From: Escherichia coli | GTDB lineage: Bacteria > Pseudomonadota > Gammaproteobacteria > Enterobacterales > Enterobacteriaceae | Assembly: GCF_030384885.1 (NCBI RefSeq) | Contig: NZ_CP128613.1 | DNA: 64,000 nt | Direction: 5' to 3' (one strand) | Part shown: piece after piece, positions 1-14,350 of the stretch | Layout: every line of letters starts with the position of its first letter | Position numbering within the stretch: position 1 is the stretch's first letter | Position numbers and translations under genes: made by a program | Notes under the pieces: model-generated | Told to the model about the DNA's origin: nothing | Seen by the model: the letters and a program-made list of their open reading frames with translations, nothing else | The model's database searches: none

Positions 1-262
1 AACATAAGGAACCCGCAAAGAGGCTACAGTTGCCTACTGGCTGACCAAAGGGGATAGCGTGGGTATAGCCTTCCAGCTGGCATGCGCGATCGGCGATCCC
101 GCGACTGACATAACGATCGGTACGGGCATGCTGCAAAAAAGCCTGATCATAAACCAACCGAACAATACCTGTTGCCGCGTCAACTTCGCCCACATGAGCC
201 TGGCGAGTAACTGTGCACCCCGCCAGCGTTATTAATGAAAGAGTCAGAATCAGAAGTCTCAT
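1..262 (-). CDS. yecR: Lipoprotein YecR, N-terminal part (gene runs off the window start)
   Basis: Reverse-complement translation from ATG (complement of 260-262) gives MRLLILTLSLITLAGCTVTRQAHV... with lipobox LAGC; no stop before the window edge, so it is absent from the ORF track; position beside azuC/yecJ/ftnB as in E. coli. Confidence 0.75.
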   Translation of the reverse strand, partial: MRLLILTLSLITLAGCTVTRQAHVGEVDAATGIVRLVYDQAFLQHARTDRYVSRGIADRACQLEGYTHAIPFGQPVGNCSLFAGSLC

Positions 263-426
263 GGTCCAGCCAGAAGAGTAAAAGAAAGCAGTATTTTACG
301 TGTTACAGCGCTGCGACAATGGCCGGAAAAGACGCCTGGCAGGCGCTATTTCTCGCCATCTGTATGTGTCAGAAATGGGGGTGCTGCCTTTTGATTATCA
401 TTTTTATAACATTAAAGGGGTATTTA

Positions 427-442
427 TGTGATTTGCATCACA
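427..442. promoter_or_regulatory. CRP-type palindrome TGTGATTTGCATCACA upstream of azuC
   Basis: Perfect match to CRP consensus TGTGA-N6-TCACA read directly in the sequence; azuC is reported to be catabolite-controlled. Confidence 0.6.
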
Positions 443-524
443 TAAAGATTGATTTTTGTGATGGTTGTCATATTATAAGTGCAAAGACAATAACACCTGC
501 ATAACAAATAGTCGGAGTGCCGCG

Positions 525-611
525 ATGAAACTGCGCAAGATCCTGAAAAGTATGTTCAATAACTATTGCAAGACGTTCAAAGACGTACCGCCAGGCAATA
601 TGTTCCGATAA
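525..611 (+). CDS. azuC: Small protein AzuC (28 aa), encoded on the dual-function AzuCR (IsrB) RNA
   Basis: ATG at 525; translation MKLRKILKSMFNNYCKTFKDVPPGNMFR then TAA matches my recollection of AzuC; too short for the ORF track; intrinsic terminator immediately downstream. Confidence 0.85.
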   Translation: MKLRKILKSMFNNYCKTFKDVPPGNMFR

Positions 612-612
612 C

Positions 613-641
613 AAAAAACCTGCTCCGGCAGGTTTTTTTGT
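613..641 (+). terminator. Rho-independent terminator of azuC/AzuCR
   Basis: Hairpin aaaaaacctgc-tccg-gcaggttttttt with U-tract read in sequence. Confidence 0.8.
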
Positions 642-725
642 GTCCTGATGACGGTGTATGTGACTATCGCTGAAGATGTGAAGCCGCTACTATAACGGCT
701 TTCAAAATGCTATCAGGAGTTTACG

Positions 726-977
726 ATGTCCCAGCCGCTGAATGCCGATCAGGAACTGGTTTCTGATGTGGTTGCTTGCCAGTTGGTTATCAAACAAATT
801 CTCGACGTTCTCGATGTGATCGCACCCGTTGAAGTTCGCGAAAAAATGTCCAGCCAGCTGAAGAATATCGACTTTACTCACCATCCCGCCGCCGCAGACC
901 CGGTCACCATGCGGGCAATCCAAAAAGCCATCGCGCTGATTGAACTCAAGTTTACCCCACAGGGCGAATCCCATTAA
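726..977 (+). CDS. yecJ: DUF2766 family protein YecJ (83 aa)
   Basis: ORF-track 83-aa [19 protein letters not shown]...; matches remembered YecJ; conserved neighbourhood. Confidence 0.85.
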
Positions 978-980
978 AAA

Positions 981-1050
981 ACCGCTGCTTCAAAAAGATG
1001 AGGCAGCGGTTTCTCAAAAACTTCATCGGCGCAATGCATTAGCGCCGATG
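981..1050 (-). terminator. Two hairpins between the convergent yecJ and ftnB; likely ftnB terminator(s), possibly bidirectional
   Basis: Stem accgctgc/gcagcggt (981-1010) and 9-bp stem catcggcgc/gcgccgatg (1024-1050); on the minus strand each is followed by a U-run. Confidence 0.5.
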
Positions 1051-1054
1051 ATGA

Positions 1055-1558
1055 TCAATGCAGCTGATGCGACACGACATTCAGAACATGTTGGTCGGTC
1101 TGCACAGGGCACATACCAGCAAGTTTCGCACTGCGCACTTCATCAAGAATGGTTTGCAGCAACAGGCCATCATGCTGCTGCTCTTTTTCCAGATCGCGCA
1201 GGAAATTGACGGTTGAATCATCATTCAGTTCTTTAGCTTCATCGGCTAACTGTGCCAGCGTGCTTGAACGTTGCTCGTATTCTTCCATCGTTTTTTGGAA
1301 AAGTTCTTCCAGTGAGTTCAGTTTTTCACCGGGAACATCAATGGCTTTAACGATGGGAGTAGCGCCGACACTCTTCATAAAGTTAAACATGCGCATCATT
1401 TGGGTCACGTTACTCTGTGCCTGGGCGCGAAGGAAAGTGGCGGTGCCGTTCAGACTCTGTTCAGAACACCAGTTACTCAGGTGAAGGTAGAGATTGGATG
1501 CGTAAAACTCGCGGTTCATTTGAGAGTTGAGTTTGAGAAGCATTCCAGCGGTTGCCAT
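1055..1558 (-). CDS. ftnB: Ferritin-like protein FtnB (167 aa)
   Basis: ORF-track 167-aa [34 protein letters not shown]...; ferritin-like; matches remembered FtnB (YecI). Confidence 0.9.
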
Positions 1559-2091
1559 ACCTAATATCCTTATATCCAGAAGTGGAGAGGTGCAAGATAA
1601 ATCAAAACACCATAATTACTGTTTGCAGAATAATTCCTTTCTGCCGGTCCGAAATGTGATCGTGGAGTCAATTCTGACGATGATCTGAAATAAGAATAAC
1701 GTCTGAACGGGTATAAGAAAATGCTTAAATCATCAAGTTTATATATTTTTACATTTCATTGATGAAATCAATGTAACTGCAATGAATTTTAATGATGATG
1801 CTTTTTGTATCTTGTTGATATTAATAGGGGGATTTGAATTCATGATGAAGCAATGATTTTTTAAAACGTTTTTTCATTTTTGCGATATGGCTCTCAGTAT
1901 ACGTGTTCTGTTAATTAATGAGCACGGTGATAATTAATGGCGAAATGAATGACGCTCATTTTCCACATCTTTGAGTTGCGGTTATTACACCATTTCAAAA
2001 ACTCAACGCCAGGTAATGCAGCCTATTGACTGGTTAAAAAGAAGACATCCCGCATGGGTACCAAAGACAACAAGGATTTCCAGGCTAATCT

Positions 2092-2230
2092 TATGGATTA
2101 ATCTGCTGCGTGCTCGGTGATTTGTCTGACAAATAAGCTTTTCCTTATGTCTTTTCCCGCTAAATTTATGCACGTTCTCACTGTAATTCTGCGATGTGAT
2201 ATTGCTCTCCTATGGAGAATTAATTTCTCG
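2092..2230. promoter_or_regulatory. Candidate araFGH control region with AraC half-site-like motifs
   Basis: TATGGATTAATCTGCTG at 2092-2108 fits the reverse complement of the AraC half-site pattern (nAGCn7TCCATA); a second TATGGA lies at 2211; exact operator positions not verified. Confidence 0.3.
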
Positions 2231-2354
2231 CTAAAACTATGTCAACACAGTCACTTATCTTTTAGTTAAAAGGTAATGCTTTGTTTTCCGATTAAATTAA
2301 CGAGAGTTATTCGTTTTTGCCCTACACAAAACGACACTAAAGCTGGAGAGAACC

Positions 2355-3344
2355 ATGCACAAATTTACTAAAGCCCTGGCAGCCATTGGTCTGGCAGCCG
2401 TTATGTCACAATCCGCTATGGCGGAGAACCTGAAGCTCGGTTTCCTGGTGAAGCAACCGGAAGAGCCGTGGTTCCAGACCGAATGGAAGTTTGCCGATAA
2501 AGCCGGGAAGGATTTAGGGTTTGAAGTTATTAAGATTGCCGTGCCGGATGGCGAAAAAACATTGAACGCTATCGACAGCCTGGCTGCCAGTGGCGCGAAA
2601 GGTTTCGTTATTTGTACTCCGGACCCGAAACTCGGCTCTGCCATCGTGGCGAAAGCGCGTGGCTACGATATGAAAGTCATTGCCGTGGATGACCAGTTTG
2701 TTAACGCCAAAGGCAAGCCAATGGATACCGTTCCGCTGGTGATGATGGCAGCGACCAAAATTGGCGAACGTCAGGGCCAGGAACTGTATAAAGAGATGCA
2801 GAAACGTGGCTGGGATGTCAAAGAAAGCGCGGTGATGGCGATTACCTCCAACGAACTGGATACGGCTCGTCGCCGTACTACGGGTTCTATGGATGCGCTG
2901 AAAGCTGCAGGATTCCCGGAAAAACAAATTTATCAGGTACCTACCAAATCTAACGACATCCCGGGGGCATTTGACGCTGCCAACTCAATGCTGGTTCAAC
3001 ATCCGGAAGTTAAACATTGGCTGATCGTCGGTATGAACGACAGCACCGTGCTGGGCGGCGTACGCGCGACGGAAGGTCAGGGCTTTAAAGCGGCCGATAT
3101 TATCGGTATCGGTATTAACGGTGTGGATGCGGTGAGCGAACTGTCTAAGGCACAGGCAACCGGCTTCTACGGATCACTGCTGCCAAGCCCGGATGTACAT
3201 GGTTATAAGTCCAGCGAAATGCTTTACAACTGGGTCGCAAAAGGTGTCGAACCGACCAAATTCACCGAAGTTACCGACGTGGTGCTGATCACGCGTGACA
3301 ACTTTAAAGAAGAACTGGAGAAAAAAGGGTTAGGCGGTAAGTAA
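2355..3344 (+). CDS. araF: L-arabinose ABC transporter periplasmic binding protein AraF
   Basis: 329-aa ORF MHKFTKALAAIGLAAVMSQSAMAENLKLGFLV... with signal peptide; matches remembered AraF; followed by araG and araH. Confidence 0.95.
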   Translation: MHKFTKALAAIGLAAVMSQSAMAENLKLGFLVKQPEEPWFQTEWKFADKAGKDLGFEVIKIAVPDGEKTLNAIDSLAASGAKGFVICTPDPKLGSAIVAKARGYDMKVIAVDDQFVNAKGKPMDTVPLVMMAATKIGERQGQELYKEMQKRGWDVKESAVMAITSNELDTARRRTTGSMDALKAAGFPEKQIYQVPTKSNDIPGAFDAANSMLVQHPEVKHWLIVGMNDSTVLGGVRATEGQGFKAADIIGIGINGVDAVSELSKAQATGFYGSLLPSPDVHGYKSSEMLYNWVAKGVEPTKFTEVTDVVLITRDNFKEELEKKGLGGK

Positions 3345-3413
3345 TCTGCCGAAAAAATTCCCCTCTGTATGATGCAGAGGGGGTGTGAACGACCAGTGAT
3401 TCTCGGAGACGTT

Positions 3414-4928
3414 ATGCAACAGTCTACCCCGTATCTCTCATTTCGCGGCATCGGTAAAACGTTTCCCGGCGTTAAGGCGCTGACGGATATTAGTTTTGAC
3501 TGCTATGCCGGTCAGGTTCATGCGTTGATGGGTGAAAATGGCGCAGGAAAATCAACTCTCTTAAAAATCCTCAGCGGCAACTATGCGCCAACCACGGGTT
3601 CTGTAGTGATTAATGGGCAGGAAATGTCCTTTTCCGACACAACCGCAGCACTTAACGCGCGTGTGGCGATTATTTACCAGGAACTGCATCTCGTGCCGGA
3701 AATGACCGTCGCGGAAAACATCTATCTCGGCCAGCTGCCGCATAAAGGCGGCATTGTGAATCGCTCATTGCTGAATTATGAGGCGGGTTTACAACTTAAA
3801 CATCTTGGTATGGATATTGACCCGGACACGCCGCTGAAATATCTCTCCATTGGTCAGTGGCAGATGGTTGAAATTGCCAAAGCGCTGGCGCGTAACGCCA
3901 AAATTATCGCCTTTGATGAGCCAACCAGCTCCCTCTCTGCCCGTGAAATCGACAATCTTTTCCGCGTTATTCGTGAACTGCGAAAAGAGGGGCGGGTGAT
4001 CTTATACGTTTCTCACCGTATGGAAGAAATATTTGCCCTCAGCGATGCCATCACCGTCTTTAAAGATGGGCGTTATGTCAAAACCTTTACTGATATGCAG
4101 CAGGTTGACCACGACGCCCTGGTGCAGGCGATGGTCGGGCGCGACATCGGCGATATCTACGGTTGGCAACCGCGTAGTTATGGCGAGGAGCGGCTGCGTC
4201 TTGATGCTGTGAAAGCACCAGGCGTGCGTACGCCAATAAGTCTGGCGGTTCGCAGTGGAGAAATTGTCGGTCTGTTTGGTCTGGTCGGGGCTGGGCGTAG
4301 CGAATTAATGAAAGGCATGTTTGGCGGTACGCAAATCACCGCCGGTCAGGTTTATATCGACCAACGGCCGATTGATATTCGTAAACCGAGCCACGCTATT
4401 GCCGCAGGCATGATGCTCTGCCCGGAAGATCGCAAAGCGGAAGGCATTATTCCTGTGCACTCCGTTCGCGACAATATCAACATCAGTGCCAGACGTAAAC
4501 ATGTGCTCGGCGGTTGTGTAATCAACAACGGTTGGGAAGAAAACAATGCGGATCACCATATTCGCTCGCTCAACATCAAAACGCCGGGCGCTGAGCAACT
4601 GATCATGAATCTCTCAGGCGGAAATCAGCAAAAAGCCATTCTGGGTCGCTGGTTATCGGAAGAGATGAAGGTCATTTTGCTGGATGAACCTACGCGCGGC
4701 ATTGATGTTGGTGCTAAGCATGAAATTTACAACGTGATTTATGCGCTGGCAGCGCAGGGCGTGGCGGTGCTGTTTGCCTCCAGCGACTTACCTGAAGTCC
4801 TCGGAGTTGCCGACCGGATTGTGGTGATGCGCGAAGGCGAAATCGCCGGTGAATTGTTACACGAGCAGGCAGATGAGCGTCAGGCATTAAGCCTTGCGAT
4901 GCCTAAAGTCAGCCAGGCAGTTGCCTGA
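3414..4928 (+). CDS. araG: L-arabinose ABC transporter ATP-binding protein AraG (504 aa)
   Basis: Track ORF 3369-4928 trimmed to the ATG at 3414 ([17 protein letters not shown]...) to give the 504-aa length of AraG; two ABC ATPase domains ([17 protein letters not shown]). Confidence 0.92.
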
Positions 4929-4942
4929 GTAAGGAGAGTATG

Positions 4943-8295
<3,353 letters not shown>

Positions 8296-8301
8296 GTGCG
8301 G

Positions 8302-8730
8302 TTAATCTCCCGTAAGTGGAACTAACAGCACATCGACCTCACTTGAGGCAATCACTCTTTTCGCCGAGCAGGATGCTCGCGAAAAGAAACTGTGATTGTG
8401 ATTACCGCAAATCACCAAATCGAAATGATGTTTGCGACAAACCTCCAGAATATGTTCGCTTAACTCACCGTAGGCAATAAACGTCTCGTCAACGGGATAC
8501 CCCGCATCCTGAATTAACTTATCAAGAAAGCTTTGCGTTTCTTCCTGCATCACGCTGCGTAAATCTTCAAGCATCGGCGCGGCTAATTGATTGTACATTT
8601 CCGGGTCGGAAGCGAGAGTAATTAAACTGATGTGTCCCTTTACTGGCCTGGCGATAGATACCGCTTTTGCTAGCAGTTGCTGACTTTCCGGTGTAACCGC
8701 AACGGCGACAAGAATATTGCTATAGCTCAT
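8302..8730 (-). CDS. uspC: Universal stress protein UspC (142 aa)
   Basis: 142-aa ORF MSYSNILVAVAVTPESQQLL...; Usp fold; matches remembered UspC (YecG). Confidence 0.92.
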   Translation of the reverse strand: MSYSNILVAVAVTPESQQLLAKAVSIARPVKGHISLITLASDPEMYNQLAAPMLEDLRSVMQEETQSFLDKLIQDAGYPVDETFIAYGELSEHILEVCRKHHFDLVICGNHNHSFFSRASCSAKRVIASSEVDVLLVPLTGD

Positions 8731-9232
8731 AACCTGTTCCTTATTCTGTGAACTTCAGGTGACATTAAAGCTTTACTCCTAATGGAGAATCGACGCAATC
8801 CCAACTCAGTCAAACAGGTAAATATTAGTGTGATTATTAGTAAATACAATTAATCAATCACTCTCGGTGATCATATGATTTCAACTGTAATTATAAGAAA
8901 ATATTGTACTGATTCTCCATATTAAACAAGTGGTTAATATATCTAAAACATTTTGTTAACATTAAGTGGGTTGTTGCCTGTCTTTGCCTTTAATCAGTTT
9001 ATTGTGTTGTAAGTGCCTGTTTGTAAATAGATTAACTGATTTTGGATTTGACCAATTATTTATAGCAGATGATTATTTACGGTGAGTTATTTTAACTGTG
9101 CGAAACATCTCATTTCGATTATTACGGTTTCACTTTTGCTTACCATCGGTGTGAAAAACTTTTTAACAGATTGAAATACACCCAAAACAAAAGTATGACT
9201 TATACATTTATGTTAAGTAATTGAGTATTTTA

Positions 9233-9248
9233 TGTGATCTGCATCACA
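9233..9248. promoter_or_regulatory. CRP site of the flhDC class I promoter (TGTGATCTGCATCACA)
   Basis: Perfect CRP consensus palindrome about 270 bp upstream of the flhD ATG, consistent with the known CRP activation site centred near -72 of the flhD promoter. Confidence 0.75.
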
Positions 9249-9314
9249 CATTATTGAAAATCGCAGTACCCCTCCGTTGTATGTGCGTGTAGTGACGAGT
9301 ACAGTTGCGTCGAT

Positions 9315-9512
9315 TTAGGAAAAATCTTAGATAAGTGTAAAGTACCCCCTCTATTTGTAAGGACCTATTAAACCCAATAAGGTGGGGGCTGTTTTATTGC
9401 AGCTTATCGCAACTATTCTAATGCTAATTACTTTTTACCGGGGCTTCCCGGCGACATCACGGGGTGCGGTGAGACCGCATAAAAATAAAGTTGGTTATTC
9501 TGGGTGGGAATA
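9315..9512 (+). promoter_or_regulatory. Long flhDC 5' untranslated leader (approximate)
   Basis: Established knowledge: the flhD transcript starts about 198 nt upstream of the ATG; the CRP site spacing here fits a start near 9312-9315; boundaries approximate. Confidence 0.45.
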
Positions 9513-9863
9513 ATGCATACCTCCGAGTTGCTGAAACACATTTATGACATCAACTTGTCATATTTACTACTTGCACAGCGTCTGATTGTTCAGGACAAAG
9601 CGTCCGCAATGTTTCGTCTCGGCATAAATGAAGAAATGGCGACAACGTTAGCGGCACTGACTCTTCCGCAAATGGTTAAGCTGGCAGAAACCAATCAACT
9701 GGTTTGTCACTTTCGTTTTGACAGCCACCAGACGATTACTCAGTTGACGCAAGATTCCCGCGTTGACGATCTCCAGCAAATTCATACCGGCATCATGCTC
9801 TCAACACGCTTGCTGAATGATGTTAATCAGCCTGAAGAATCGCTGCGCAAGAAAAGGGCGTGA
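9513..9863 (+). CDS. flhD: Flagellar master regulator subunit FlhD (116 aa; alternative GTG start at 9504 gives 119 aa)
   Basis: [29 protein letters not shown]... matches remembered FlhD; track ORF starts 3 codons earlier at a GTG. Confidence 0.93.
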
Positions 9864-9865
9864 TC

Positions 9866-10444
9866 ATGAGTGAAAAAAGCATTGTTCAGGAAGCGCGGGA
9901 TATTCAGCTGGCAATGGAATTGATCACCCTGGGCGCTCGTTTGCAGATGCTGGAAAGCGAAACACAGTTAAGTCGCGGACGCCTGATAAAACTCTATAAA
10001 GAACTGCGCGGAAGCCCACCGCCGAAAGGCATGCTGCCATTCTCAACCGACTGGTTTATGACCTGGGAACAAAACGTTCATGCTTCGATGTTCTGTAACG
10101 CATGGCAGTTTTTACTGAAAACCGGCTTGTGTAATGGCGTCGATGCGGTAATCAAAGCCTACCGTTTATACCTTGAACAGTGCCCGCAAGCAGAAGAAGG
10201 ACCGCTACTGGCATTAACCCGTGCCTGGACATTGGTACGGTTTGTTGAAAGTGGATTACTGCAACTTTCCAGCTGCAACTGCTGCGGCGGCAATTTTATT
10301 ACCCACGCTCACCAGCCTGTTGGCAGCTTTGCCTGCAGCTTATGTCAGCCGCCATCCCGGGCAGTAAAAAGACGTAAACTTTCCCAGAATCCTGCCGATA
10401 TTATCCCACAACTGCTGGATGAACAGAGAGTACAGGCTGTTTAA
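9866..10444 (+). CDS. flhC: Flagellar master regulator subunit FlhC (192 aa)
   Basis: [27 protein letters not shown]... with zinc-binding cysteines near the C-terminus; ATG at 9866. Confidence 0.93.
10375..10401 (+). promoter_or_regulatory. Sigma-28 (FliA) promoter TAAACTTT-N11-GCCGATAT inside the flhC 3' end (motA/MotR promoter)
   Basis: Close match to FliA consensus TAAAGTTT-N11-GCCGATAA read in sequence; position fits the known motA class III promoter. Confidence 0.7.
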
Positions 10445-10502
10445 CTGATACGGTGTGGCGAAACATTCCAGCAGCGGTAACGACGTACCGCTGCTTTTTT
10501 TT
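10409..10502 (+). ncRNA. motR: Probable MotR small RNA (motA 5'-leader-derived, sigma-28 dependent); boundaries approximate
   Basis: Sigma-28 promoter at 10375-10401 followed about 70 nt later by an intrinsic terminator gives a roughly 95-nt transcript, as reported for MotR. Confidence 0.45.
10471..10502 (+). terminator. Rho-independent terminator downstream of flhC (3' end of MotR)
   Basis: Stem gcagcggta/taccgctgc, loop acgacg, followed by T8. Confidence 0.8.
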
Positions 10503-10570
10503 GCCCCAATCGCGCGTTAACGTCTGACGACTGAACATCCTGTCATGGTCAACAGTGGAAGGATGATGTC

Positions 10571-11454
10571 GTGCTTATCTTATTAGGTTACCTGGTTGTT
10601 CTCGGTACAGTTTTCGGCGGTTATCTGATGACCGGTGGAAGCCTTGGAGCACTCTATCAACCCGCTGAACTGGTGATTATTGCCGGTGCAGGGATTGGGT
10701 CGTTTATCGTCGGCAATAATGGCAAAGCGATTAAAGGCACGCTGAAGGCGCTGCCGTTACTATTTCGTCGCTCCAAATATACCAAAGCAATGTATATGGA
10801 TCTGCTGGCTCTGCTTTATCGGTTGATGGCGAAATCGCGGCAGATGGGGATGTTTTCGCTGGAACGCGATATTGAAAATCCCCGTGAGAGCGAGATCTTC
10901 GCCAGCTACCCACGCATCCTTGCGGATAGCGTCATGCTTGATTTTATCGTCGATTATCTGCGCCTGATTATCAGCGGTCACATGAATACCTTCGAAATTG
11001 AAGCCCTGATGGATGAAGAGATTGAGACGCACGAAAGCGAAGCAGAAGTCCCAGCGAACAGTCTGGCATTGGTCGGGGACTCACTTCCGGCGTTTGGTAT
11101 TGTCGCGGCTGTGATGGGGGTCGTTCACGCGTTAGGTTCAGCCGATCGTCCTGCCGCCGAGCTGGGGGCGCTTATCGCACATGCGATGGTGGGGACTTTC
11201 CTCGGTATTTTATTGGCTTACGGATTTATTTCCCCATTAGCGAGTGTTTTACGTCAGAAAAGCGCCGAAACCAGCAAAATGATGCAATGCGTGAAAGTCA
11301 CACTGCTTTCTAATCTGAACGGTTACGCACCGCCTATCGCCGTTGAGTTTGGTCGCAAAACGCTCTATTCCAGCGAACGTCCGTCGTTTATTGAACTGGA
11401 AGAGCATGTGCGTGCGGTGAAAAATCCGCAACAACAGACGACAACCGAGGAAGC

Positions 11455-11458
<4 letters not shown>
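10571..11458 (+). CDS. motA: Flagellar motor stator protein MotA (295 aa, GTG start)
   Basis: (V)[22 protein letters not shown]...; four-helix membrane protein; matches remembered MotA. Confidence 0.95.

Positions 11459-14350
<2,892 letters not shown>

Follow-up and report, generated by a model that had tools for sequence, protein, structure and literature searches.

The promoter of azuCR (isrB) in Escherichia coli carries two CRP sites, one a perfect palindrome at positions 427-442 (site 1) and the other a near-perfect one at 457-472 (site 2) of the 64-kb stretch of DNA analysed here, which is referred to below as the window. Both are very probably real, functional promoter sites through which CRP represses azuCR. 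Control of azuCR by CRP is already published and is ordinary regulation; what had been noticed from the sequence is a correct rediscovery. Site 2 was missing from the original prediction.

The azuCR locus and its transcript

The window is a piece of the E. coli chromosome in which azuCR occupies 420-641. The region from 300 to 720 was 96-99.8% identical in 5,419 of 5,426 complete E. coli genomes, where azuC is annotated, and the RefSeq annotation of the open reading frame as azuC is found in at least 5,410 E. coli genomes. A comparison of the yecR/ftnA-azuC-yecJ synteny revealed the same gene order as in K-12 and in strain 2013C-4282. yecR lies on the minus strand with its start codon at 262, yecJ (726-977) is on the plus strand, and ftnB, araFGH, otsBA and uspC are located downstream of yecJ and upstream of flhDC, whose ATG is at 9514 on the plus strand. 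In an alignment with K-12 the azuCR region showed 98% identity and zero indels, so that K-12 coordinates can be transferred directly to the window. The K-12 locus (azuCR, isrB or IS092) holds the same gene between yecR and yecJ, and K-12 and the window have identical AzuC proteins, promoter hexamers (-35 and -10), terminators and copies of site 2. The sole difference within site 1 is a T in K-12 at the spacer position where the window has C436. The exact 61-mer surrounding site 1 in the window is common to 815 of 5,414 E. coli genomes. The spacer between yecR and azuC also contains a G+C-rich hairpin at 333-345 (CGCCTGGCAGGCG), identical in K-12; with respect to yecR, which is read from the other strand, it lies ahead of the start codon.

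A promoter scan of the plus strand assigned to azuCR a sigma-70 promoter composed of a -35 hexamer TTGATT (449-454), a spacer of 16 bp and a -10 hexamer TATTAT (471-476), the latter ending 7 nt short of the mapped start. In 59 species sequences the columns of the -35 hexamer were 92-100% conserved and those of the -10 hexamer 93-100%. In vitro, the sigma-70 holoenzyme is preferred for transcription of isrB (PMC3141248). The AzuCR RNA (also IsrB or AzuR) occupies 483-641 on the plus strand, corresponding to the RefSeq azuR feature at K-12 1988001 to 1987843. It is a transcript of about 160 nt whose start was transferred from K-12, with its own sigma-70 promoter and an intrinsic terminator. The start was published as K-12 1988001 (Raina 2022, PMC8915982). 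In the same paper this start puts the ATG at +43, yet the coding sequence is numbered 40-126, which implies a start 3 nt further downstream and leaves a 3-nt ambiguity.

A Shine-Dalgarno sequence, GGAG, can be read at 514-517, ending 7 nt before the ATG. The azuC open reading frame that follows on the same plus strand (525-611; ATG at 525, TAA at 609-611) comprises 28 codons and a stop, and its product, MKLRKILKSMFNNYCKTFKDVPPGNMFR, is 100% identical to AzuC of K-12. RNA folding recovered an intrinsic terminator at 612-639, composed of a stem of CCTGC/GCAGG extended by A/U pairs, a TCCG loop and a run of seven U. It was not detected by a simple terminator scan, the likely reason being that the A-run and the T-run pair with each other. 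The original prediction had described an AzuC small protein/AzuCR RNA locus with a 28-codon frame at 525-611 and a terminator of its own. The identity of the locus is confirmed by RefSeq annotation, synteny, the K-12 alignment and the literature (PMC8915982), the frame by the ORF itself, its identity with K-12 and RefSeq, and the terminator by the folded hairpin and U-run.

In K-12, AzuCR base-pairs to repress cadA and galE, and AzuC activates GlpD (Raina 2022, PMC8915982). The RNA encoded in the window differs from that of K-12 at only 4 positions. It is a sigma-70 transcript that starts at 483, codes for the 28-aa AzuC and very probably also acts by base-pairing. A scan of positions 1-12000 against Rfam at gathering thresholds gave zero families, leaving the AzuCR region without a match to a described family; this result says nothing against the AzuCR RNA.

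The 5' untranslated region of AzuCR contains the motif CACCUGC (494-500, plus strand), complementary to nucleotides 1-7 of FnrS (GCAGGUG). Duplex prediction on restricted regions gave -13.9 kcal/mol for this pairing, and 41 of 58 species have the motif. The published pairing of FnrS with AzuCR probably has this motif at its core. Prediction with both RNAs at full length returned one long spurious duplex, and 18 of 300 shuffles were equally good. In seven loci of Enterobacter and Lelliottia (L019, L032, L038-L041 and L044) the motif in the 5' untranslated region is ATAAAGTTGTATAACA instead of ATAACACCTGCATAACA, so that the complement of the FnrS 5' end is lost. The azuC homologue in the same seven loci starts with GTG (VKLRKILKSMW...) and not with ATG.

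Antisense features were seen as well. A sigma-70-like promoter (CTGATA, 16 bp, TATAGT) at 716-689 on the minus strand lies in the azuC-yecJ spacer and is directed antisense into azuC, and the minus strand holds a 48-aa open reading frame at 468-614. A transcript designated 'c2317, antisense of azuC' was sigma-S-preferred in vitro, and the locus has been called a 'complex locus' (PMC3141248).

Two CRP sites and their conservation

Site 1 (TGTGATTTGCATCACA, 427-442) matches the TGTGA-N6-TCACA core at 10 of 10 positions. The perfect CRP palindrome predicted here is thus present, and it corresponds to a published CRP box (Shimada 2011, PMC3105977). Only two perfect cores were found in the whole 64-kb window, site 1 and TGTGATCTGCATCACA at 9233-9248 in front of flhDC, against an expectation of 0.05, and none of 100 shuffles reached two. 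When one mismatch was allowed, a single further core appeared in the 64 kb. This is TGTGATGGTTGTCATA at 457-472, site 2, which begins exactly 30 bp downstream of site 1 and matches at 9 of 10 positions. Site 2 takes up the spacer between the two promoter hexamers and reaches into the -10 element, whose first two bases, T471 and A472, are also part of the right half-site TCATA.

With the start at 483, the centre of site 1 is at -48.5, just ahead of the -35 element, and that of site 2 at -18.5; under the other numbering of Raina 2022 (PMC8915982) site 1 would be centred at -51.5. The computed K-12 counterparts are 1988042-1988057 for site 1 and 1988012-27 for site 2. It had been asked whether the mapped start might make site 1 irrelevant, and a centre at -48.5 shows that it does not. 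This value is not among the classical CRP positions. A role of site 1 as a Class II activator site was rejected, both because its centre is at -48.5 and not at -41.5 and because the regulation is repression.

Published experiments agree with these assignments. Hemm 2010, as cited in Raina 2022 (PMC8915982), is the source for repression of azuC/AzuCR by CRP. According to the same citation, glucose gives high levels of AzuC-SPA and AzuCR and glycerol low ones, and deletion of crp raises the levels. isrB levels are likewise up in a crp mutant, and predicted CRP sites are drawn in the figure of the azuCR promoter in Raina 2022 (PMC8915982). In genomic SELEX with CRP the spacer between isrB (azuC) and yecR (yecJ/yecR) was the top clone, recovered 59 times, and it was also obtained by SELEX-chip (Shimada 2011, PMC3105977). 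Two CRP boxes are given for isrB (azuC) in Table S3 of that study, TGTGATACAAATCACA and TATGACAACCATCACA; reverse-complemented, they are sites 1 and 2 of K-12. In Table 1 of Shimada 2011 (PMC3105977) isrB is entered both as a target found by SELEX and as one not found.

For the analysis of conservation 80 species-representative loci were anchored on yecJ; 58 of them had azuC just upstream of yecJ, and column conservation was computed on 59 distinct species-level sequences. The carriers belong to more than ten genera and include Escherichia, the Citrobacter amalonaticus group, Enterobacter, Lelliottia, Leclercia, Kosakonia, Silvania, Pseudescherichia, Pseudocitrobacter and Huaxiibacter. In 22 of the 80 loci azuC was absent upstream of yecJ. 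Taxa lacking it include Salmonella enterica subsp. arizonae and diarizonae, C. koseri, the C. freundii complex and Buttiauxella, and L010, L017, L024, L026, L036, L042, L045-L049, L051, L053, L054, L065, L070 and L076-L080 are among the azuC-less loci. A loss can be recognised in Escherichia sp. MOD1-EC7003 (L003, 1240-1500), where yecR is gone together with the promoter and reading frame of azuC, the counterpart of about 262-611. Here ftnA lies directly against what is left of the azuC terminator, acaaaaaaactgttccggctggtttttt, homology resumes at window position 611 and the YecJ protein is 100% identical to that of the window.

All 58 azuC-positive loci retained site 2 together with both promoter hexamers, and site 2 occurred in all 59 sequences. 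Site 1, with up to 2 mismatches, was present exactly 30 bp from site 2 in 57 of the 58 loci and in 58 of the 59 sequences, the spacing being invariant wherever both sites occur. Both half-sites of site 1, GTGA and TCAC, were kept in 56 of 59 species sequences. GTGA (428-431), T438, C439 and C441 were invariant, and A440 and A442 were kept in 95% and 97%, respectively. The half-site columns reached 1.7-2.0 bits, against 0.2-0.5 bits for the almost random spacer columns 433-436. The first T of the core was kept in only 49% of the sequences, and since CGTGA is common the perfect palindrome is not itself the conserved feature. In site 2, TGTGA (457-461), T468, C469 and A470 were conserved although they lie outside the promoter elements, which points to a bound factor. 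Conserved half-sites on either side of a freely varying spacer are the footprint that a dimeric factor would leave, and this pattern, read from the alignment columns, was found at the CRP site.

Alternative readings of site 1 and its likeness to the flhDC site

It has to be considered whether the DNA of site 1 serves primarily another regulator. Ekdahl 2025 (PMC12266141) reported two FNR motifs (K-12 1988039-55 and 1988042-58) as well as one for PhoP (1988046-63), and by their coordinates these motifs coincide with site 1. In that study motif mutation or deletion of the factor led to derepression, the main changes in protein occupancy fell outside annotated CRP sites, and an earlier FNR ChIP-seq signal near isrB is cited. 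From this, 427-442 could be taken as primarily an operator of FNR, overlapped by one of PhoP, for shutting azuCR off under anaerobic or low-cation conditions, with CRP playing a secondary part. We regard this as unlikely. The mutants of Ekdahl 2025 were assayed at stationary phase in glucose medium, when cAMP-CRP would presumably be active, and destroying the FNR motif would also destroy CRP site 1. Moreover, the same DNA was the top CRP clone in SELEX (PMC3105977). The conservation pattern also argues against it. FNR has the core TTGAT-N4-ATCAA, which site 1, reading GTGAT-N4-ATCAC, does not match. Positions G428 and C441 are established discriminators between CRP and FNR sites; both are invariant in 59 of 59 sequences, the half-sites are of the CRP type (GTGA...TCAC), and an FNR-type half, TTGA or TCAA, occurred in 0 of 59. 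Columns 419-426, which a PhoP box would need, are poorly conserved. FNR may bind here, and other regulators may use the DNA of site 1 too, but from these columns selection appears to act on the CRP site.

Ekdahl 2025 (PMC12266141) further described a NarP motif at 1988060-76 (about 408-424 in the window) whose mutation led to derepression. Inside its coordinates we noted AGGGGTA at 416-422, the reverse complement of TACCCCT. The columns of 416-422 are not conserved outside Escherichia. TACCCCT is presumably a match to the NarL/NarP heptamer.

Very unlikely, in our judgement, is that site 1 is a CRP activator site of the divergent yecR and lies next to azuC incidentally. In Escherichia the yecR start codon is about 155-166 bp from site 1, and CRP sites in divergent spacers often control both genes (Shimada 2011, PMC3105977). 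However, in most azuC-positive species yecR was not found within 1.2 kb upstream and site 1 is still kept, which assigns it to the azuC promoter. In the species without yecR its distance to site 2 stays at 30 bp and that to the downstream -35 element at 6 bp, whereas the distance to yecR, where this gene is present, varies from 129 to 166 bp or is about 1 kb. The promoter scan found no minus-strand sigma-70-like promoter near site 1.

The other perfect core in the window, TGTGATCTGCATCACA (9233-9248), belongs to flhDC. With the flhD transcription start at 9312, as inferred from the alignment in which this region is colinear with K-12, it is centred at -71.5. The RegulonDB entry for flhDC, reproduced in Table S4 of Shimada 2011 (PMC3105977), gives an activator site at -71.5 with the sequence TGTGATCTGCATCACG, and the centre of the K-12 site recomputed from coordinates was also -71.5. 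The site of the window thus has the geometry of the RegulonDB promoter, with a core nearly the same as that of azuCR site 1, and it is an independent, classical Class I CRP activator site. In contrast to the azuCR arrangement, this site stands alone at a long distance upstream of its core promoter and mediates activation instead of repression. Carbon-source control of the two loci, 8.8 kb apart, had been proposed on the strength of these sites. Both are indeed published CRP targets, with the qualification that the sign is opposite, azuCR being repressed and flhDC activated.

The likeness of the two sites was described correctly: the 16-mers differ by one base, in the spacer, and the extended 19-mers (atgtgatttgcatcacata and atgtgatctgcatcacaca) by two, which leaves 17 of 19 positions in agreement. 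Since these are also the sole perfect cores in 64 kb, one might think of a duplication or of a functional pairing by looping or coordinated affinity tuning. Such shared ancestry or pairing is effectively refuted, and we give it next to no credence. Outside the 16-mers the flanks are unrelated, with 15 of 40 positions in agreement (shuffle p = 0.34), and the regulation is of opposite sign. In K-12 there are three differences between the sites (TGTGATTTGTATCACA at azuC and TGTGATCTGCATCACG at flhD), and the exact 44-mer of the window at flhD is found in only 4 of 5,387 E. coli genomes. The spacer of site 1 drifts, with TTTGCA, TTTGTA, TTCATA and TTTAAA all occurring in E. coli strains, and across species it matches the flhD spacer at anything from 0 to 6 of 6 positions. 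The one-base likeness is uninformative; it is lineage-specific, and the spacer is the freely varying part. It is a coincidence of two sites that are both merely near the CRP consensus, and it should not be over-interpreted.

Some further differences from K-12 were seen in the flhDC region. The K-12 CRP site (1978459-1978474) is imperfect, with TCACG in its right half, where the window, like most E. coli, has TCACA; the same TCACA was present in three other sampled strains. The IS1 insertion upstream of flhD in MG1655 is absent from the window. At about 9343-9385, in the 5' untranslated region of flhD, substitutions are clustered together with a 3-nt indel relative to K-12 (ACCCCCTC...GGTGGGGGCTG versus ACCCATTTC...GGTGGTTCTG). 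Folding of this divergent patch gave no structure beyond that of shuffles (z = +0.35 and -0.32).

Possible mechanism of repression

The positions of the two CRP sites suggest how repression could work. In the absence of glucose, when cAMP is high, CRP would occupy sites 1 and 2 and shut the azuCR promoter; in its presence both sites would be empty and the strong promoter would fire. Judged from its position, site 2 probably does the actual occlusion. Although the weaker of the two, it would let CRP compete with sigma-70 for the spacer and the bases at -12 and -11, and so exclude RNA polymerase sterically. Its single mismatch, TCATA in place of TCACA, may be explained by the need of the -10 hexamer for a T at -12. 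Site 1, of consensus strength and high affinity, would help to load site 2, either cooperatively or by joint bending, since 30 bp correspond to about three helical turns and place the two sites on roughly the same face of the DNA. It may in addition block contacts at the alpha C-terminal domain and the -35 element. Repression, binding in vitro and the start are published; for occlusion and cooperativity of CRP we infer the steps from the layout.

Comparable regulation is known from other genes. Spot 42 (spf) of E. coli and VcdRP of Vibrio cholerae are small dual-function RNAs that, like azuCR, are repressed by cAMP-CRP and relieved by glucose (PMC12612679, PMC8916003). They are unrelated to azuCR in sequence and in site geometry, the repressor site of spf being at -84.5 compared with the tandem at -48.5 and -18.5. 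Site 2 resembles the CRP repressor sites in RegulonDB of lpd (-18.5), trxA (-23.5) and cyaA (-2), which overlap the core promoter with a dimer centred in the -35/-10 region and are presumed to act by occlusion. Unlike these, azuCR pairs the overlapping site with one of consensus strength exactly 30 bp upstream, and this pairing is conserved across genera. The tandem might therefore be a dedicated module for cooperative CRP-CRP repression, conserved in more than ten enterobacterial genera, and the derepression ascribed to FNR and PhoP by Ekdahl 2025 might in part be lost CRP repression. We put this double proposal, drawn from site spacing and conservation, forward only tentatively and think it rather less probable than its converse.

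The conservation across genera provides new support, at the level of sequence, for both CRP boxes of the azuCR promoter and for their fixed spacing. The CRP-type footprint at site 1 also bears on how the promoter-mutation experiment of Ekdahl 2025 is to be read.
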